Source of the DNA: Puia sp.
GTDB taxonomy: Bacteria > Bacteroidota > Bacteroidia > Chitinophagales > Chitinophagaceae
Direction: 5' to 3'
Assembly: GCA_035295505.1 (NCBI GenBank)
Contig: DATGIX010000104.1
Location: forward strand, 10,809-74,808
Length of the DNA stretch: 64,000 nucleotides
Part shown: piece by piece, positions 480-8,902 of the stretch
Layout: the number at the start of each line of letters is the position of its first letter
Position numbering within the stretch: position 1 is the stretch's first letter
Translations under genes and position numbers: made by a program
The notes under the pieces: model-generated
Database searches by the model: none
Told to the model about the DNA's origin: nothing
The model's input: the letters and a program-made list of their open reading frames with translations, nothing else

Positions 480-502
480 TCTTATGCTTCTTGCTCATTA
501 AA

Positions 503-699
503 GTGGGATTCCCGCCTGCGCGGAAATGACGGGGAGAGCACGATTAATCACAAAATGCAAGAATCTTGTAGTTAATGAATAAGCTAATCATCATTCTTAT
601 CTAAGAAAAACTGAGAGTAAAATAAAGAACTATAATCAGAAAGAAGTGAGAAATTTACCACGAAGCTGCACGTCATTCCCGCGCATGCGGGAATCCCAC
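503..699. repeat. Inverted doublet of CGTC-tagged REP/dRS3-like palindromes (503-531 and 671-699)
   Basis: gtgggattcccgcctgcgcggaaatgacg ... cgtcattcccgcgcatgcgggaatcccac; the second copy is an exact ATTCCC-N8-GGGAAT, the first has one mismatch. Confidence 0.9.
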
Positions 700-715
700 C
701 GAACAAATCAACCAC

Positions 716-1006
716 TCACAACTCATCGAATAAATCCTTCCAATCAGGATTCACTTCGATAATCAGTTTTTCTTTCCATTCTCTGTTCCATTTTTTAAGA
801 ATCTTTTCTCTGGCAATTGCATCTTCAATTCTTGAATAACTTTCATAATACACCAATTTGTTGCAATTGTATTTTGCAGTGAATGATTCGGGATAAAACT
901 TTTCTTTGTGCTCCTTTACTCGTGCATATAAATTTGAAGTAACACCGATGTATAATACAGTGTGAAAATCATTCGCCATGATGTATATACAACCGCCGTA
1001 TTGCAT
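716..1006 (-). CDS. Small GIY-YIG nuclease family protein (YhbQ/UPF0213-like)
   Basis: CIYIM...VLYIGVTSNLYARVKEH, FTAKYNCNKLVYYE, AIAREKILKKWNREWKEKLI motifs; 96 aa. Confidence 0.9.
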   Translation of the reverse strand: MQYGGCIYIMANDFHTVLYIGVTSNLYARVKEHKEKFYPESFTAKYNCNKLVYYESYSRIEDAIAREKILKKWNREWKEKLIIEVNPDWKDLFDEL

Positions 1007-1035
1007 GATAAGAATATAGATTGCTCAACAAAAAA

Positions 1036-1186
1036 GTGGGATTCCCGCATGCGCGGGAATGACGACAAACTTCCTGATAAAATTTGACATCATGAATTTT
1101 TGAGCTCGATATAGCAAGTTATTATACACAGTAAATTTTAAATTTACTTAGATAGTAGTACGTCATTCCGGCGTAGGCGGGAATCC
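1036..1186. repeat. Second inverted REP doublet (1036-1064 and 1161-1186)
   Basis: gtgggattcccgcatgcgcgggaatgacg ... cgtcattccggcgtaggcgggaatcc. Confidence 0.9.
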
Positions 1187-1216
1187 AACCGCACAAATTG
1201 ACGAGGCAATGACGAA

Positions 1217-2230
1217 TCACTTCTTTCTCCTCAACCTCACCGTCGAACTTTGTGTGAGGCTGCTGCTCATATAAACTTCATAACGGTTTTTCCCATCTGA
1301 AATAATCATCAGCGCTGTGTTTGGCGGGATCGTGCCGAGGTTCTCAGCGAACATGCTGATTTCATTCATATCTGTGGTGCTGTCTAATGCAACATATAGG
1401 TTAATGGCTTTTGCAGATAAGCCCTGATGTGATAACACTAATTTATTATTCAGGAAAACAGAAATGCTGTCGCCGTCAATATCACCATTATCATAAAAAG
1501 TTACTTTCACAGAATCACTTTCAATCAGCAAATCTTTATTGTAAATATTTTTTCTCTTGGCATAAGCCTCTGTAATTTTTTTAACATCACTCGCTTCTTT
1601 CAACGGAGTGACATCAGTTGTTTTCAATGGTGGACCGTCAATCGAAATTTTTTTATTCTTTTTTATTTCTTCAAAATTGATTTCTTCTTTTTTAGATTCA
1701 TTAGCACTTACCACAAAATCATCCGGCTGTGGTTTCCACACTTGTTTGCCGGCAACTGCATTTGCCAATGTTTCATTGGTGTTTTCGCTGGTATCAATGG
1801 TGTAAGTAACTCTCAAATCAGGGCAAGTGTATTTATATTTTCCATCGTGATAAAAATGCCCGTTGATTTTTTTCTGCACTGCTGAAACAAATAATGTCCC
1901 GATAAAATCTGTGTTGCACTCAATGCTGTTCACTGTTGAATTCGTTCCATAATAAATAACAGGAATGTCTTGTATCGTTATCTCTTTTGTTTTTGCATTG
2001 TATGTTCCGTGAATGAAAAAACTTTGATACACATCTTTGAAATAATAACCGAAGATGCCTTCTATTTCATCGCCTTTTTGTTTGATGATTAATTCAGTGA
2101 GATAATTGCTAAAGTTGCCAGCCATGTCAACATCTGCTTTTCCATACCACGAGCCGGTGACAGTGTTGTTATTCTGCGCATGGAGAATATGGCAGATGAA
2201 AAGAAAAAGAGGTAGCAGCAGTTTTTTCAT
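1217..2230 (-). CDS. Secreted hypothetical protein
   Basis: 337-aa ORF with signal peptide; C-terminal VTFYDNGDIDGDSISVFLN beta-rich domain. Confidence 0.7.
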   Translation of the reverse strand: MKKLLLPLFLFICHILHAQNNNTVTGSWYGKADVDMAGNFSNYLTELIIKQKGDEIEGIFGYYFKDVYQSFFIHGTYNAKTKEITIQDIPVIYYGTNSTVNSIECNTDFIGTLFVSAVQKKINGHFYHDGKYKYTCPDLRVTYTIDTSENTNETLANAVAGKQVWKPQPDDFVVSANESKKEEINFEEIKKNKKISIDGPPLKTTDVTPLKEASDVKKITEAYAKRKNIYNKDLLIESDSVKVTFYDNGDIDGDSISVFLNNKLVLSHQGLSAKAINLYVALDSTTDMNEISMFAENLGTIPPNTALMIISDGKNRYEVYMSSSLTQSSTVRLRRKK

Positions 2231-2249
2231 GATGTTGAGTTAAATACAA

Positions 2250-2516
2250 TTTCACGCAACGAGGCAACGATTGCAACGAAGCAACGGGTACAAAGAAACA
2301 AAGGAATATTTGAAATCTCATTTTTTAAGACACCCGAATAAATAAGAAAATCTTAAAATGCATCTTCACATATTTTCACGCGACGAGCGCAGAGAATGCA
2401 ACGAAGCAACGGGTCATTAAATTCGCTACGTTCTTATAACTATGATTATTCAGTAAGTATAATACATTCAAAAAAAATCTTTGCGCTCGTTGCCTTCGTC
2501 GCCTCGTTGCGTGAAA
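2250..2516. repeat. Cluster of 8-9-nt periodic repeats (GCAACGA units): two forward arms (2250-2288, 2374-2412) and one inverted arm (2481-2516)
   Basis: tttcacgcaacgaggcaacga... versus ...gcctcgttgcgtgaaa; another copy at 15954-15973. Confidence 0.75.
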
Positions 2517-2520
2517 AAAT

Positions 2521-2546
2521 AAAAAAAGCCCGCTTGCGCGAGGCTT
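2521..2546 (-). terminator. Intrinsic terminator of rpsA
   Basis: Minus strand AAGCCTCGC-GCAA-GCGGGCTT followed by a T-run, 25 bp after the stop codon. Confidence 0.8.
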
Positions 2547-2571
2547 CGAGAAAACTGTGTATGTTATTCTC

Positions 2572-4551
2572 TTATTGCTTAGGTTCTTCGCTGCTGTCTG
2601 CTGCTGCTCCGCCTTTCTCACCTTTCTCTTCCTGTTGCAGTTTTTCTTTAATGCCTGCGAGTGCGCCAAGGTCTCCAAGCGTTGGTTTTTCAACTTTCGC
2701 CTGAATGTTCTTAACAGCTTTGCGTGCATTATCTGCTTCAGTTCTTTCCGCTTTTCTCGCAACTTCTTTTTCTTCTGTTTTCGCTTGTTCCCAAATGCGT
2801 GTGTGGGAAAGAACGATGCGTTTTTCGTTGCGGTCAAATTCAATCACCATGAACTGTGCAGTTTCATCAGCGTTCACTTGCTTGCCATCTTCTTTGAAAA
2901 GATGACGGTTAGGAGCAAAACCTTCGAGACCATAAGGCAACTGAACAAGCGCACCTTTATCATCTTTGCGCGTTACAGTTCCTTCGTGGATAGTGCCGAT
3001 AGCAAATGTTTGCTCGAGCGCATTCCAAGGGTCTTCTTCCAGTTGTTTATGTCCTAATTGCAACTTGCGATTGTCTTTATCGATTCCAAGAATTATCACT
3101 TCGATATTCTGTCCGACTTTTGTGTATTCTGAAGGATGATTGAAACGTTTCAGCCAGCTTAAATCACTGATGTGAATCATGCCGCCGATGCCCGGAGCGA
3201 GCTCAACAAACACGCCGTAAGGAGTGATGTTTTTCACAAGTCCTGTATGCTTGCTATCTTTCGGGAATTTAGTTTCAATAGTGCTCCATGGGTCTTCGCT
3301 TAATTGCTTAATAGAAAGACTCATTTTGCGTGAAGCCTTATCAAGCGTCACTACTTTTGCCTGATGCTCATCACCTAATTTGAAGAATTCTTTTGCATTG
3401 ATAGGTGTGTTTGCCCATGTGATTTCGCTCACGTGAACAAGACCTTCAACACCCGGCATCACTTCGAGGAATGCGCCGTAATCTTCAATGTTCACCACTT
3501 TGCCTTTCACGATTGCACCTTCCTTGATTGTTTCAGGAAGCACATCCCAAGGATGCGGCGTCAATTGTTTCAAGCCAAGGCTGATGCGTTTTTTGCCATC
3601 ATCAAAATCAAGCACAACCACCTGCAATTTCTGGTCAAGCTTCAGCACTTCGCTTGGGTGAGAAATTCTTCCCCAGCTAATGTCAGTGATGTATAATAAA
3701 CCGTCGAGACCACCGAGGTCCATGAACGCACCGAAGTCGGTGATGTTCTTGATAGTTCCTTCAAGCACCTGCCCTTTCTCGAGCTTGCTCATAATCTCTG
3801 CACGCTGTGCTTCGATATCGCTTTCAATAAGTGCTTTGTGAGATACTACCGCGTTCTTGATAGTTTCGTTGATTTTTACAACTTTGAACTCCATCGTTTT
3901 ATTAACGAACTGGTCGTAGTCAGTAACAGGCTTCACATCGATTTGTGAACCAGGAAGGAAAGTTTCCATGCCGAACACATCCACGATAAGACCGCCTTTA
4001 GTTTTGCTGGTAACAGTTCCAGTGACCACTTCGCCTGTTTTGTGAACTTCCACAATGCGCTCCCATGCACGTGTGATGCGTGCCTGTTTGCGGCTCAGGT
4101 GAAGGTGACCTTCTCTGTCTTCTTTTTCAACCACCATCACTTCCACTTCATCGCCCACTTTTAAATTTGGTGTGTCGCGGAATTCATTCAGTGAAACAAG
4201 GCCATCGCTTTTGAAACCGATGTTGATGACAACATCTGTTTTAGTGAGCGCCACAATCAATCCCTTCACCATTTCATTGTCGGTGATGGAAACGAAAGTG
4301 TTGTCGTACACGTTGTCGTACTTTTCCTTTTCTTCCTTCGTGTAAGGAGTAACATTGCGCTTGTCGATGCTCCAGTCAAAATCGTCGTGCGCAGTAACGA
4401 TTCTTTCTTCAACCGGAGGAACAGCCACAACCGGAACAACCTGAGGTTCCGCTGCCGCAGCAACAGGTGCATTTGTTGTCGCTGTAACCTCTGCACTTGC
4501 AGTCGGTTCCTGTCCTTCAGCGTTTGAGTTAACAATATTGTTTTCTGACAT
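2572..4551 (-). CDS. rpsA: 30S ribosomal protein S1
   Basis: Six S1 repeats (e.g. [29 protein letters not shown]); N-terminal HDDFDW motif typical of Bacteroidota. Confidence 0.98.
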
Positions 4552-4582
4552 AGTAAAACCCGTTGATTTTTTAAACGGGCTG

Positions 4583-4590
4583 CAAAGATA
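4583..4590 (-). promoter_or_regulatory. Bacteroidota sigma-A -7 element for rpsA
   Basis: TATCTTTG matches TAnnTTTG, 31 nt before the ATG. Confidence 0.8.
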
Positions 4591-4627
4591 ATAAAATACG
4601 GGGATTTTTAGGCGTTTTTTAGAGATA

Positions 4628-4740
4628 AGTTTCCAGTTTTTAGTCTATAGTTTCCAGTTCTTTGGATGCATCAGCGATTATCATTTCGTGCTGCGATTTC
4701 GAATGGAGAACTCGAAACTGAAAACTATAAACTGGAAACT
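4628..4740. repeat. Heptamer-periodic inverted repeat
   Basis: (AGTTTCC-like)n left arm and (GGAAACT-like)n right arm. Confidence 0.75.
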
Positions 4741-4858
4741 ACTTTGGTTGCCAGCTTTGAGCCTTGATTGAACATCGTTGCGACGCTCCGTTCATCGATT
4801 GTAGTACTATTCGGCTCCTCTTCTATAGCAAGCCACTGGCTAAGGCAAAGAAGTTAAG

Positions 4859-4866
4859 TAAATTTG
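4859..4866 (+). promoter_or_regulatory. Putative -7 element for the HEPN gene
   Basis: TAAATTTG, 33 nt upstream of the ATG at 4900. Confidence 0.55.
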
Positions 4867-4899
4867 AAATTAAAAATAAGGTATCGAACTTACTAACTA

Positions 4900-5931
4900 A
4901 TGAGAAAGTATCAACGAGCAATAGTTTTCACAAAAGTGCCTTTAGGAGGTTATTATCGATATAAAGACATGTTCCAAATCTTTCCGGCTGATTTTAAAGA
5001 CATGCCACAAAATCCATATCAAAAGCATTATCCCAATATTTTAGAATATTGGTTTACAGATGATGAAAAAATAATAAGAGAATCAGAGTATGAAAATTTA
5101 AACGAATTATTTACTTCAACTGCAACTATTGTTACCAAAGAAGACAGGATTATATCTCTTTTAAATTCGTTCACTAACAATATTTTTTTCAAATATAATT
5201 ATGAAGGTATATGGGCTATTCCGGTATTATTTGATGTAAACACAAATGTTATATCGGAAGAAATAAATTCATTAACTCCAAAATGGAGTATTAAAACCTT
5301 CCATTTCCCTACTCTCTCAAATCAGCTACAAATAACAAAATTTACCAACCTCTCCTATAGCGAGATAAAGAAGATTGCTCATCTTGAATTTTATACTCGT
5401 TTTCCTAACCTAGATAATGATAACGAACGTTCAATAGTATTTCCAGAGACTTTCGATTCGATTTTGGACTCTTATTTTTCTATAGAAAAAGAATTGCAAA
5501 CTATTATTGACTCTGCTATTGGATATAACATGGCTGCTATCGAGCTTTGGGGACATAAAAAAACTATAGGGTTATTAGCTTCATTTACAGCAGTTGAAAC
5601 AATGGTGAACTTAGAATACCGACAACAAAAAATAGAAAAATGTGAGAATTGTGGACAGTTGAAATTCAGTGTTGCCAAAAAATTTAGAGAATACTTATTG
5701 AAATATATTGGTAGTTCGAATGAAAATAAAAAGAAATTTAATTCCTATTATAACCTTCGCTCAAAAATTGTACACACTGGAGCAAGATTAAAAGCTGAAA
5801 TTTTATTTTCAGAAGTTTCAAAAAAAGAATTAGAAACCGAATACATAACAAGAGTTGAGATATTACAAATTGGTAAACTTTCAATTGCAAATTGGTTACT
5901 CTTAAATACAAAACAAACTAATTTTTTATAG
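4900..5931 (+). CDS. HEPN-domain protein (Apea-like), putative defence RNase
   Basis: C-terminal LLASFTAVETMV helix, CENC motif and YNLRSKIVH (R-X4-H) motif; AT-rich. Confidence 0.7.
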   Translation: MRKYQRAIVFTKVPLGGYYRYKDMFQIFPADFKDMPQNPYQKHYPNILEYWFTDDEKIIRESEYENLNELFTSTATIVTKEDRIISLLNSFTNNIFFKYNYEGIWAIPVLFDVNTNVISEEINSLTPKWSIKTFHFPTLSNQLQITKFTNLSYSEIKKIAHLEFYTRFPNLDNDNERSIVFPETFDSILDSYFSIEKELQTIIDSAIGYNMAAIELWGHKKTIGLLASFTAVETMVNLEYRQQKIEKCENCGQLKFSVAKKFREYLLKYIGSSNENKKKFNSYYNLRSKIVHTGARLKAEILFSEVSKKELETEYITRVEILQIGKLSIANWLLLNTKQTNFL

Positions 5932-7124
5932 CGAGAACGAAGCCATCTGCTTTCAAATTAATACAACCCAAAAATCGCAAGACCAGATTCCCGCCTACGC
6001 GGGAATGACGGCGAGAGCATGAGAAATTTTAAACTTCAGGAATTTTGAAATTACTTCGAGAGTTGCCGTCATACCTGCGCATGCAGGTATCTGGATTTGC
6101 AGAGAAAGATTTTTGCAAACATTAATCAAAACAAAGCTTTCATCAACCCGCACTCCACAGCGCGTAACGAAGCCATCTGCCATTCAAATTAATATGATGA
6201 AATCGCAAGAGCAGATTCCCGCCTACGCGGGAATGACGGCGAGTGCACACGAAATTTCAAACTGCAAGAATTTTGAAATTACTTAGAGGTCAACAGACCT
6301 GTCAGGTTTTTAAAACCTGACAGGTCTGAGCAGCGATTACTAAATTTATTTTGCACCCCACAGCGAGTAACGAAGCCATCTGCTTTTCAAATTAATACAA
6401 TCCAAAAATCACAAGAACGGATTCCCGCCTACGCGGGAATGACGGCGAGAACGTGCGAAATTTTAAATTGCAAGAACTTTGAAACTACTTAGAGAGTTAC
6501 CGTCATACCTGCGCATGCAGGTATCTGGATTTGCGGAGAAAGATTTTTGCAAACATTAATCAAAACAAAGCTTTCATCAACCCGCACTCCGTGGTGAGTA
6601 ACGAAACCATCTGCTTTTCAAATTAATACAACCCAAAAACCGCAAAAGCAGATTCTCACCTACGCGGGAATGACGGAGAGTGCAAACGAAATTTTAAACT
6701 ACAAGAATTTTGAAATTATTTAGAGCTCAACAGACCTGTCAGGTTTTTAAAACCTGACAGGTCTGAACAGCGATTACTAAATTTATTTTACACCACACAG
6801 CGAGTAACGAAGCCATCTGCTTTCAAATTAATACAATCCAAAATCGCAAGAGCATATTTCTCCGCCGCGGCGGACGGGAATGACGGCGAGTGCGCACGAA
6901 ACTTTAAACTGCATGAACTTTGAAATTACTTAGAGGTCAACAGACCTGTCAGGTTTTAAAAACCTGACAGGTCTGAGCAGCGATTACTAAATTCATTTTG
7001 CACACGGTGAGTAACGAAGCCATCTGCTTTTAAATTAATACAACCCAAAAATCGCAAGAGCAAATTCCTGCATACGCAGGAATGACGGCGAGAGCGTACG
7101 AAATTTTAAACTGCATGAATTTTG
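5931..7124. repeat. Mosaic tandem array: six ~125-bp cores alternating with module A or B (order A,B,A,B,B); BIME/NIME-like
   Basis: Cores start at about 5931, 6160, 6363, 6594, 6800 and 7007; each has gcgagtaacgaagccatct and a gattcccgcctacgcgggaatgacg-type REP. Confidence 0.92.
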
Positions 7125-7136
7125 GTTTTTATATTA

Positions 7137-7151
7137 TACCAATTTTTGGTA
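7137..7151. promoter_or_regulatory. Palindromic operator upstream of parD
   Basis: TACCAA-TTT-TTGGTA, 21 bp before the antitoxin ATG. Confidence 0.55.
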
Positions 7152-7172
7152 CTTTTAATCAAACTTATAGTA

Positions 7173-7415
7173 ATGGCTCGCAACACATCTATTTTATTAG
7201 GCGATTATTTTGAAGACTTCATTTCATCTGAAATTTCATCAGGGCGCTATAGCTCTGCAAGCGAAGTTGTGCGCACAGCGCTCAGGCTTTTACAGCAGGA
7301 AGAAATGAAAAAGAAAAACTTATCAAAAGCATTGCTCCAAGGCGAGAAAAGCGGTTTCGTTAAAAACTTCGATGCAAAAGCCAATCTTAAAAAACTTCGT
7401 GCAAAGCACTCATGA
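7173..7415 (+). CDS. parD: Type II antitoxin, ParD family (ribbon-helix-helix)
   Basis: MARNTSILLGDYFEDFISSEISSGRYSSASEVVRTALRLL; ATG at 7173 is more plausible than 7122. Confidence 0.9.
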   Translation: MARNTSILLGDYFEDFISSEISSGRYSSASEVVRTALRLLQQEEMKKKNLSKALLQGEKSGFVKNFDAKANLKKLRAKHS

Positions 7416-7714
7416 AAGCACTGCCTTATGTAATCAGCAAAAAAGCTATTTCCGACCTGGAAGATATCTGGCTTTACACCGCTGATAAATGGTCAATTGA
7501 ACAAGCAGACAGATATTACAACCTGATTTTCGATGAAATATCTTTTATCTGCAAAAACCCAAAGACAGGAAAAGAAATGGAACACGTACGGAAAAGTTAC
7601 AGAGCAGCCAAAGTGAAATCACACCTTATCTTTTACAAAATTGAAAATAACACCATCATGATTGTAAGAATTTTACATGAACGAATGGATATTGAAAACA
7701 GGCTAAATGATTGA
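7412..7714 (+). CDS. parE: Type II toxin, RelE/ParE family
   Basis: YVISKKAISDLEDIWLYT...WSIEQADRY...SHLIFY...IVRILHERMD; ATGA overlap with the antitoxin. Confidence 0.92.
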   Translation: MKALPYVISKKAISDLEDIWLYTADKWSIEQADRYYNLIFDEISFICKNPKTGKEMEHVRKSYRAAKVKSHLIFYKIENNTIMIVRILHERMDIENRLND

Positions 7715-7785
7715 TTTCATCATTAAAAATGTCGACATGAACCAACTACAATCCAAAACTTTCTAAATCCTCGCTTTATATCCAA

Positions 7786-8253
7786 ATGGAAGAAAAACAA
7801 TTAATCATAAGAAAAGCAACAGAACAAGACGTCCATGTGATTTTAGCATTTGAACAGGAAATCATTAATGCAGAAAGACCATTTGATATCACATTAAAAA
7901 CAGAGCCGACCTATTATCATGACATCCCGAAAATGATAAGCTCGGAAAATATTTATTTTATAGTCGCGGAAATAAATAATGAAATAATCGCATCAGCTTA
8001 TTCCAGAATCATCAGCTCAAGCCATTATCTGAAACATGATGAGCACGCTTATCTCGGCATGATGTATGTAGTCCCCGAACATCGAGGCAAAGGCATCAAC
8101 AAAAAAATGATTGACGAATTGATTGCTTGGTCAAACTCAAGGAATGTGCATGAATTCAGATTACTTGTGTATAATGAAAATTCACCTGCAATAAGCGCTT
8201 ATGAGAAATCGGGGTTTGTTAAGCATGTGGTTGAAATGCGCATGTCATCTTAG
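7786..8253 (+). CDS. GNAT family N-acetyltransferase
   Basis: MYVVPEHRGKGI acetyl-CoA binding motif; AISAYEKSGF. Confidence 0.85.
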   Translation: MEEKQLIIRKATEQDVHVILAFEQEIINAERPFDITLKTEPTYYHDIPKMISSENIYFIVAEINNEIIASAYSRIISSSHYLKHDEHAYLGMMYVVPEHRGKGINKKMIDELIAWSNSRNVHEFRLLVYNENSPAISAYEKSGFVKHVVEMRMSS

Positions 8254-8284
8254 CGATTCAAGTATCTCATTTATTCATCAATAG

Positions 8285-8902
8285 TCAGTGGAAATTTGTT
8301 GATTTTCGGGTACTAATCAGCAAAACATATTTTTGTTTATATAAAGATATCGCAGTCTGCTCTTTAAGTATTGATATCTGATCTATATCCGAACTTGAAA
8401 GATTTTCTAAAAAAGGCTTAAAGTCACTTTGGTATAAAAAAGGCCGACCGTTAATTATAACATAGACATCCGAAAGTTGAGTAGCCCAATTTTCAACTTT
8501 AGCTTTAATATTAGAAAATCCATTTTGCAAAAACTGATAGCCGTTTAAAGAATCTATCTGACTAACAGTTGTACCCGAAGTTGAAATAACAATTAGATCA
8601 TATCGGATCTTTGAAGAATAATCTTCAACGGTTTTATAATTTGATAAAATTTTAATTTCTTTAATTTTAGGGATATCAAGTTTGGATAAAGAATTGTGGA
8701 TATCAGCTGAGTCAATTAAATTGTTATCAATTTTTAATAATGCGCTTTTAGCAAAAAGCAATTCTTTAGAATCTTTGTGACCGACAAATATCTTATCAAT
8801 TTTCTTGTCAATCTTCCCTGAATTATTTTTTTTAAAAATTGAGCAGGATGTCAGAAGGAAAGTTAGTGCAACTATAAAAATCAACGACTTTTGATTGTTC
8901 AT
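8285..8902 (-). CDS. Hypothetical lipoprotein
   Basis: Lipobox LLTSC; AT-rich 205-aa ORF. Confidence 0.65.
   Translation of the reverse strand: MNNQKSLIFIVALTFLLTSCSIFKKNNSGKIDKKIDKIFVGHKDSKELLFAKSALLKIDNNLIDSADIHNSLSKLDIPKIKEIKILSNYKTVEDYSSKIRYDLIVISTSGTTVSQIDSLNGYQFLQNGFSNIKAKVENWATQLSDVYVIINGRPFLYQSDFKPFLENLSSSDIDQISILKEQTAISLYKQKYVLLISTRKSTNFH

Follow-up and report, generated by a model that had tools for sequence, protein, structure and literature searches.

Why does the genome of a soil bacterium carry, between two protein-coding genes, a row of near-copies of one ~215-bp composite unit built from several different palindromes, and what might act on them? The question is raised by positions 5931-7124 of a 64,000-nucleotide stretch of Puia sp. 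DNA (contig DATGIX010000104.1 of assembly GCA_035295505.1), referred to here as the window, in which five full units of 204-230 bp and a truncated sixth follow one another in the module order A,B,A,B,B. A preliminary description of this DNA had read the region as a six-unit mosaic in which a common core is joined to interchangeable modules A and B, and all of these features were found where it had placed them. The core extends over ~131-139 aligned columns with a pairwise identity of 74-88% in the unit alignment, BLAST comparisons of unit against unit give E values from 1e-27 to 1e-90, far beyond chance, and Tandem Repeats Finder assigns a score of 733 to the right half of the array. The most probable answer, judged from sequence, is that the array represents a mosaic of CGTC-tagged hairpins resembling the intergenic mosaic elements of Neisseria (NIMEs), that these hairpins are Ssn-related motifs (SRMs) of the type known in Neisseria as NTS, and that they are the presumed substrate of Ssn, a small nuclease encoded in the same window. 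The analogy with dRS3 palindromes and NIMEs drawn in the preliminary description holds in this form, since its palindrome, there called a repetitive extragenic palindromic (REP) sequence, corresponds to the oriented NTS/SRM motif and a NIME-type G+C wave is present, with the hairpins forming peaks of 58-75% and the spacers troughs of 17-29%.

The identity of the motif provides the starting point. In Neisseria, about half of the dRS3 palindromes belong to a longer, oriented motif, NTS, with the sequence CGTCATTCCCGCGMAVGCGGGAATCYRG (PMC11893778, Chenal et al. 2025, Nat Commun 16:2388). The hairpin in the core of each unit, designated class 1 and located on the minus strand (CGTCATTCCCGCGTAGGCGGGAATCTGG), is equal to NTS at 26-27 of 28 positions. 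In the first three units (u1-u3) its copies show no more than two mismatches to the N. meningitidis NTS CGTCATTCCCGCGMAVGCGGGAATCYRG, and the degenerate SRM pattern of the published search fits them as well. That pattern is too strict for this genome, where it recovers 14 sites against 4-7 in shuffled sequences and leaves out all class-1 copies other than u1-u3, including those that flank ssn. A census was based on the pattern CGTCAT-N-CC-N10-GG-N-AT, in which the tag and the outer stem alone are specified and which would be expected to occur ~0.6 times by chance; it detects 30 copies in the 5.2-Mb draft genome. At each stem position left unspecified, 28-30 of these 30 copies are base-paired, with double-sided changes (CG/TA; TA/AT/GC), and 28 copies have the C that follows the palindrome, the base that matters most to binding by SsnA. 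Moreover, 11 of the 30 hairpins lie within 6.6 kb (window positions 500-7100) that span both ssn and the array (Poisson P = 6e-24). A search for hairpins with any GTCAT tag gave 276 hits, no excess over the 252-268 obtained in shuffled sequence.

The enzyme that recognizes NTS in Neisseria, SsnA, is a single-domain GIY-YIG protein of 94 amino acids that binds the motif as a hairpin of single-stranded DNA and cuts a few nucleotides upstream of it, is inactive on duplex DNA, on RNA and on the reverse strand, and does not bind RNA (PMC11893778). Genes for SsnA are typically flanked by the motif, homologues associated with their own SRMs occur across phyla, and cutting just 5' of the tag has been demonstrated in vitro for four homologues (PMC11893778). 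The gene designated ssn in the window, 5 kb upstream of the array, encodes a comparable protein of 96 amino acids, which the preliminary description did not mention. PF01541 covers its residues 5-79 (E 9e-14) and no second domain is present, while GIY-YIG-type matches in NCBIfam are all below threshold and a sequence search of the PDB returned no match. Ssn is identical at 43 of 88 positions (49%, E 4e-29) to the 94-amino-acid SsnA orthologue of N. gonorrhoeae, which was identified by tblastn in a collection containing two chromosomes of this species; the orthologue has Y6, Y17 and E64 as published and is surrounded by 13 NTS copies in 1.66 kb. Residues Y8, Y19 and E67 of Ssn align with SsnA Y6, Y17 and E64, the residues mutated in the Neisseria study (PMC11893778).

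The gene is also enclosed by its own motif. The ssn cassette (window positions 503-1188) contains one hairpin pair on each side, with the tails CCCA or CCAA, compared with CTGG, CTGC and CCGT in the array copies. An orthologue in a second genome of the genus, G001, occupies a different locus and lies between doublets in the same relative orientation, with one on the upstream side and two on the downstream side (L137 1000-1657). In a set of 25 genomes from the genus, the doublet was detected in three (the host genome, G000, as well as G001 and G003) and the nuclease homologue in the same three and in G019. This co-occurrence is supportive, not independent, evidence because G000, G001 and G003 may be close relatives. 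The host genome contains a second Ssn paralogue (C232:10067-10351, 64% identical), which has a different tagged repeat on both sides, CGTCATTTCGAGCGAAGCCATTTGG...GCGAAGCGAGAAATC (C232:9880-10575), and in G001 repeats of the form CGTCATTGCGAAGCCC...GGCAATC flank the second paralogue (L145 159-446). This arrangement suggests that each paralogue has its own motif class in both genomes. The identity of the motif, the homology of the enzyme, the flanking of its gene by that motif, the co-occurrence of the two, the clustering of the hairpins and the duplication history of the array are matters of observation, and Table 1 gives the positions of the features at this locus.

Table 1. Features of the array and its surroundings, in window coordinates
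Feature	Position	Strand	Length	Remarks
Unit u1	5931-6159		229 bp	type A
Unit u2	6160-6363		204 bp	type B
Unit u3	6364-6593		230 bp	type A
Unit u4	6594-6800		207 bp	type B
Unit u5	6801-7005		205 bp	type B
Unit u6	7006-7124			core only, ends inside AT hairpin
Class-1 hairpin, u1	5983..6010	-		intact, CGTCATTCCCGCGTAGGCGGGAATCTGG; published NTS with <=2 mismatches and SRM pattern fit
Class-1 hairpin, u2	6211..6238	-		intact
Class-1 hairpin, u3	6417..6444	-		intact
Class-1 hairpin, u4	6648..6676	-		stem broken (ATTCTCAC / GCGGGAAT); tag and 3' C retained
Hairpin, u5	6856..6886	-		chimera: class-1 tag and outer stem, TCCGCCGCGGCGGA core; C after palindrome lost (A)
Class-1 hairpin, u6	7060..7088	-		stem compensated (CCTGC/GCAGG; C-G to T-A); 3' C replaced by T
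Module A hairpin (class 2), u1	6067..6094	+		CGTCATACCTGCGCATGCAGGTATCTGG; head-to-head with u1 class-1 hairpin, conserved 55-nt spacer between
Module A hairpin (class 2), u3	6501..6528	+		
Module B, u2	6294-6328		35 bp	perfect palindrome, 17+1+17
Module B, u4	6731-6765		35 bp	perfect palindrome, 17+1+17
Module B, u5	6941-6975		35 bp	perfect palindrome, 17+1+17
Unit head	6363..6383	+		GCGAGTAACGAAGCCATCTGC; decayed right part of class-3 hairpin
Other unit heads	starts 5931, 6160, 6593, 6800, 7006			
AT-rich hairpin	6253..6280			within 55-nt spacer (linker 2); perfect in u2 only
ssn	716..1006	-	96 aa	single-domain GIY-YIG nuclease, 5 kb from array
Hairpin pair, one side of ssn	508-530; 671-698	-; +		
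Hairpin pair, other side of ssn	1037-1064; 1161-1188	-; +		
Upstream gene	4900..5931	+	343 aa	stop TAG abuts first unit, which begins inside class-3 hairpin
parD	7173-7415	+		directly 3' of truncated u6
parE	7412-7714	+		

By homology with Neisseria, the locus would act at the level of DNA. Whenever the minus strand becomes single-stranded, in replication, in repair or as incoming DNA, the intact class-1 hairpins would fold, which is expected for those of u1-u3 and possibly for that of u4. Ssn would then bind the folded hairpins and cut the strand a few nucleotides away, on the 5' side of the CGTC tag. In Neisseria, SsnA lowers the integration of NTS-bearing transforming DNA about five-fold (PMC11893778). 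By analogy, the result here might be fragmentation of homologous single-stranded DNA extending across this accessory locus, with recombination there lowered. Both cleavage at this locus and a benefit to the cell are thus inferred by homology with Neisseria.

Several features weigh against the array being a working substrate of Ssn. The class-1 hairpins of three units, u4-u6, are defective at positions important for the Neisseria enzyme, in the stem in u4 and in the 3' C in u5 and u6, so that half of the array may be inactive. The class-2 stem is unlike that of class 1, and changing the stem sequence in Neisseria while keeping the hairpin abolishes activity (PMC11893778). The 35-bp palindrome of module B lacks the CGTC tag and may be unrelated to Ssn, the co-occurrence within the genus may reflect shared ancestry of the three species, and there are only ~30 class-1 copies in the genome compared with hundreds in Neisseria.

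The array might also be an inert fossil, left over as a by-product from a time of repeat proliferation and unequal recombination and now decaying, that no longer interacts with Ssn and has no effect on the cell. The damage in u4-u6 speaks for such a fate, and so do the class-3 heads, which lack the CGTC tag in all six units, the core divergence of 12-26% between units, which indicates that the duplications are not recent, and the fact that no comparable tandem array was found in the relatives or in the metagenome collection. Against it, u1-u3 share a perfect, identical 28-nt motif despite flanks that have diverged by 12-19%, the stem of u6 is compensated and an intact ssn gene lies nearby. On this evidence a fossil origin of the present state appears rather unlikely, and the hairpins are better regarded as presumed targets of Ssn.

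The composition of the units can be described in more detail, part by part. The class-3 head, on the plus strand and decayed, is followed by a ~37-nt spacer, the class-1 hairpin on the minus strand, the 55-nt spacer, module A or module B, and a tail. Eight tagged hairpins are accommodated in this way within 1.2 kb, with recurring segments between them. The CGTCAT tag is carried by all six class-1 and both class-2 hairpins; the class-1 stems are perfect in u1-u3, compensated in u6, broken in u4 and replaced in their core in u5, and the C located 3' of the palindrome is kept in u1-u4 and in both module A hairpins, with A in u5 and T in u6. The TCCGCCGCGGCGGA core found in u5 is otherwise seen in the class-4 hairpins at C73, C40 and C175. 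The head, labelled gcgagtaacgaagccatct in the preliminary description, which was silent on its hairpin origin, also given as 'gcgagtaacgaagccatctgc', is the right-hand part of another tagged hairpin, class 3, whose intact form CGTCATGGCGAGGAACGAAGCCATCTGC occupies the corresponding position of the C73 locus (C73:26923-26960) and is found at six further loci. The class-3 tag in the array has decayed to CTCCAC or CTCCGT, and CGTC has been lost in all six units. The AT-rich hairpin that the preliminary description placed in the core is indeed present, yet it is perfect in u2 alone and convincing covariation is absent.

The array is built from dispersed families, as BLAST searches of the parts against the whole draft genome recovered the GC-rich hairpin, its 55-nt spacer, the module A hairpin and the 35-bp palindrome separately at other loci. 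The recurrence of the segments between the repeats, both within the array and elsewhere in the genome, and the lack of unique spacers confirm the view in the preliminary description that this is not a CRISPR. The search for the core elsewhere in the genome, which that description had proposed, returned one more full core with module A (C73:26692-26898, 81% identical). The 35-bp palindrome, GACCTGTCAGGTTTTNAAAACCTGACAGGTC, has 26 genome copies, one of them at 6294-6328, most of them in short stop-to-stop frames, and several copies are followed by a run of T; the right-hand tail of module B, ~30 nt long, is found again at ~6 other loci. At C75:51032 the palindrome replaces the class-1 hairpin in front of the 55-nt spacer and, therefore, can occupy either end of that spacer, at whose tag side four different hairpins are found as partners.

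The structure of these palindromes could suggest a function at the level of RNA, as terminators, as stabilizers of 3' ends or as processed small RNAs in a transcript that runs from the upstream gene into parDE. The array is intergenic between two co-oriented genes, its units fold as RNA far better than shuffled sequences (z = -5.3), and REPs of Escherichia coli are known to stabilize mRNA (PMC3733652). Nevertheless, palindromes fold equally on either strand and as DNA, for which the units reach z = -3.95 against shuffles, so the folding score does not discriminate. An Rfam scan of positions 4500-8500 at E values up to 1 gave only chance miRNA-like matches on the palindromes, terminator-like matches were few and restricted to the minus strand (5 against 2.4 expected) and covariation is lacking in the AT-rich hairpin. 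Recognition of DNA by Ssn accounts for the conserved asymmetric tag and the 3' C, and SsnA does not bind RNA. A role in RNA, including the processing into repeated structured RNAs that the preliminary description had suggested, is unsupported and improbable, and the preferred reading remains that of single-stranded DNA hairpins presented to Ssn.

The reality of the array itself must also be considered, since the sequence comes from a metagenome-assembled draft of 236 contigs in which the number or order of units could be wrong or variants of different strains could have been joined. An independent short-read assembly (Logan, SRR5579871) reproduces both junctions base for base: one contig stops 36 nt into u1 at the left edge, and at the right edge another begins in the palindrome of u5 and continues through u6 into parD. 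The Logan contigs break inside the array, near both of its edges, so that its interior and the copy number rest on one assembly. However, the units diverge from each other by 5-25%, which rules out an artefact of collapsed or expanded identical repeats, and neither this divergence nor the alternation of A and B could be invented by an assembler; moreover, the C73 composite has the same architecture in a single copy. An assembly artefact is therefore highly improbable.

The way in which the array grew can be partly read from its units. An AB double unit of 434 bp is repeated at 91-93% identity, and the module tails, outside the hairpins, are 95% identical and almost unique to the array locus; the array therefore grew by local tandem duplication and not by repeated insertion. 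The probable sequence of events is the tandem duplication of AB to ABAB, the addition of an extra B, and then point decay, compensation of the u6 stem and exchange of the u5 core. Divergence is uneven along the units: the two module A copies at 6067 and 6501 are 95% identical, as modules are in general, the tails of module B are 84-95% identical, the heads 75-91% and the 55-nt spacer 79-91%. The identity of the 28-nt hairpins of u1-u3, despite flanks that differ by 12-19%, suggests that the hairpin has been kept by conservation or by conversion. The core of the u5 hairpin belongs to class 4 and, thus, indicates an exchange between hairpin classes.

A further proposal is that nicks made by Ssn in single-stranded DNA might allow the replacement of segments between hairpins, in which case Ssn would be the long-missing enzyme that builds arrays of CGTC REPs or mobilizes them. 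The sole stretch by which A units are distinguished from B units begins 5-6 nt 5' of the class-2 tag and extends to a point 3 nt 5' of the former class-3 tag, and both ends coincide with plus-strand sites where an Ssn enzyme would be expected to nick, although these are two boundaries at one locus. The exchangeable partners of the spacer and the chimeric hairpin of u5 point in the same direction, and the interleaving in the array of both motif classes linked to the paralogues would fit it too. With this evidence, a role of Ssn as array builder could be envisaged, but it is a distinctly doubtful one.

The comparison with known systems places the locus closest to NTS and SsnA. As in Neisseria, the motif has an oriented CGTC(AT) tag, an ATTCCC-N8-GGGAAT palindrome and a 3' C, the associated gene encodes a single GIY-YIG nuclease of ~95 amino acids with the motif on both sides, and motif clusters occur near particular genes. 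In contrast, the host here is a member of the Bacteroidota, a ~215-bp composite unit has been duplicated regularly in tandem, hairpins of several classes are interleaved with an untagged 35-bp palindrome, and any activity or role in transformation is putative. The assignment of the host to the Bacteroidota in the preliminary description is borne out by rpsA, whose best matches, in the Bacteroidales, reach 55-57% compared with 38-44% for other phyla.

NIMEs share with the array the dRS3-type 20-bp palindromes between recurring segments, the regular G+C wave and the variable accessory genes alongside (PMC1797815), and the segments of ~37-140 bp in the array are within the 19-214 bp size range of the RS segments of NIMEs (PMC1797815). 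However, the units of the array are tandem duplicates of each other and not a patchwork of >100 RS families, and there is no link to Correia elements or to the integration of filamentous phages. NIME arrays were stated in 2007 to be absent from non-neisserial genomes (PMC1797815). Membership in the strict sense was discarded, as the Neisseria-specific RS families and synteny are lacking, the host belongs to the Bacteroidota and the spacers are lineage-specific; hence the array is termed NIME-like.

The REPs of the CGTC-1 family (PMC3733652, Di Nocera et al. 2013, BMC Genomics 14:522), which has been reported in Bacteroidetes, resemble the array in their 8-bp stem, 4-nt loop and short tail (CCA beside ssn) and in forming mostly head-to-head dimers with a conserved spacer, among which heterodimers occur (PMC3733652). 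Their grouping is rare outside Neisseria and Wolbachia (PMC3733652), whereas a third of the copies are grouped here. As far as that report describes them, CGTC REPs have no dedicated transposase (PMC3733652), and Ssn now fills the place of the enzyme that was missing for the CGTC-1 family. Judged by its sequence features, the array is both a set of NTS/SRM repeats and one of CGTC-1 REPs.

The bacterial interspersed mosaic elements (BIMEs) of enterobacteria and the REP doublets known as REPINs also consist of clustered extragenic palindromes in a mosaic arrangement with defined linker motifs, and there, too, a small nuclease encoded between repeats of its own probably recognizes the hairpins in the form of single-stranded DNA. 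They differ in combining a GTAG tag with an HUH/Y1 enzyme, compared with a CGTC tag and a GIY-YIG protein here, so that the resemblance is one of analogy and not of membership. A classical REP or BIME mobilized by RAYT, the IS200/IS605-like tyrosine transposase, as in enterobacteria and pseudomonads, would account for the clustering of palindromes in alternating orientation and for the REPIN-like dimers. This explanation is scarcely credible because the Y1 transposase (PF01797) is absent from the 100%-complete genome, although control genomes were positive, because the tag is CGTC and not GTAG, and because the CGTC REPs, in the description just referred to, lack such an enzyme. Membership among the enterobacterial BIMEs, which the preliminary description had named as analogues, has thus to be abandoned, and the CGTC-tagged hairpins are again best assigned to Ssn.

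Members of the IS110 family target REPs and dRS3 elsewhere. As a mobilizer in this genome IS110 was rejected, since one copy exists, on a 3-kb contig, and no hairpin lies beside it. An integron attC array, suggested by the small same-strand genes that follow the repeats, was likewise discarded, as the units contain no open reading frames and show no consistent R''/R' boxes; an integrase was not searched for. The pairing of GTAAC with GTTAC is confined to u3 and absent from the B units. Among array reading frames of at least 60 amino acids there is a single one, of 62 amino acids, that runs across palindromes.

NIME-type arrays, once regarded as exclusive to Neisseria, form around Ssn-type hairpins in a low-copy genome of a soil member of the Bacteroidota as well and, therefore, array building appears to go with the pairing of Ssn and hairpin and not with the biology of Neisseria. 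The picture of Ssn and SRMs drawn in 2025 is unchanged by this, and the array is a Bacteroidota example of that system. What is particular to it is the regular tandem duplication, the interleaving of hairpin classes and the presence of two Ssn paralogues, each with its own class, in G000 and G001. The locus also represents a natural test set for the specificity of Ssn, with three class-1 hairpins left intact, one broken in its stem, one compensated without the 3' C and one chimeric, together with two hairpins of a second stem class and six decayed copies of a third, in a genome with two Ssn paralogues. For annotation, a conspicuous non-coding repeat is explained as a DNA-level feature and not as a CRISPR, a small RNA or an integron.

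The surroundings of the array seem to be variable. About 70 bp upstream of rpsA (window position 4624) the homology to the closest relative breaks off, so that everything to the right of this point is variable, and no empty site could be reconstructed. The 343-amino-acid protein encoded upstream has no Pfam or NCBIfam match, and in 40 relatives a single marginal homologue was found (G018, 26% identity, E 9e-4). On the other side, the mechanically called reading frame of ParD starts at TTG 7122, inside the last unit, and its likely start is ATG 7173 (80 amino acids, as called in the Logan contig); positions 7125-7172, between the array and this ATG, resemble part of the module A tail (ATTTTTGCAAACATTAATCAAA vs ATTTTTGGTACTTTTAATCAAA, 77%). 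Across most of the window the plus strand has a negative GC skew and the operons for ribosomal proteins are on the minus strand, so the minus strand is probably leading-strand sequence and hence exposed as the lagging-strand template, a weak inference because the skew is ~0 near the array. On the minus strand, each of the array's six class-1 hairpins has the cuttable orientation.

The 15-mer AACGAAGCCATCTGC, scanned against a genome-contig collection, gave only chance matches in unrelated phyla, and a scan of metagenome contigs for head-to-head doublets found two single doublets, one of which is the C73 locus of this genome itself, and no further arrays. The C73 locus (C73:26690-27720) is the sole other full composite unit, in a single copy with the same architecture, and it is flanked by a gene for an HNH or homing-endonuclease-repeat protein and by a Phd/YefM-YoeB toxin-antitoxin pair, a setting that mirrors the place of the array between an orphan gene and ParDE. 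The C61 doublet adjoins an AAA_15/AAA_21 ATPase, the C173 doublet a gene for a 174-amino-acid protein containing the motif RNKFAH, and a doublet from the metagenome contigs (L150) a HigA-like gene; further hairpin copies adjoin housekeeping genes, and the accessory-gene neighbours are a tendency noted in passing. In G034, which belongs to another family of the same order, seven CGTCATTGCGGGCTTGACCCGCAAT copies in the same orientation and spaced by ~48 bp (L144 232-734) directly adjoin a GIY-YIG homologue (58% identical), forming another tandem hairpin array beside an ssn gene.

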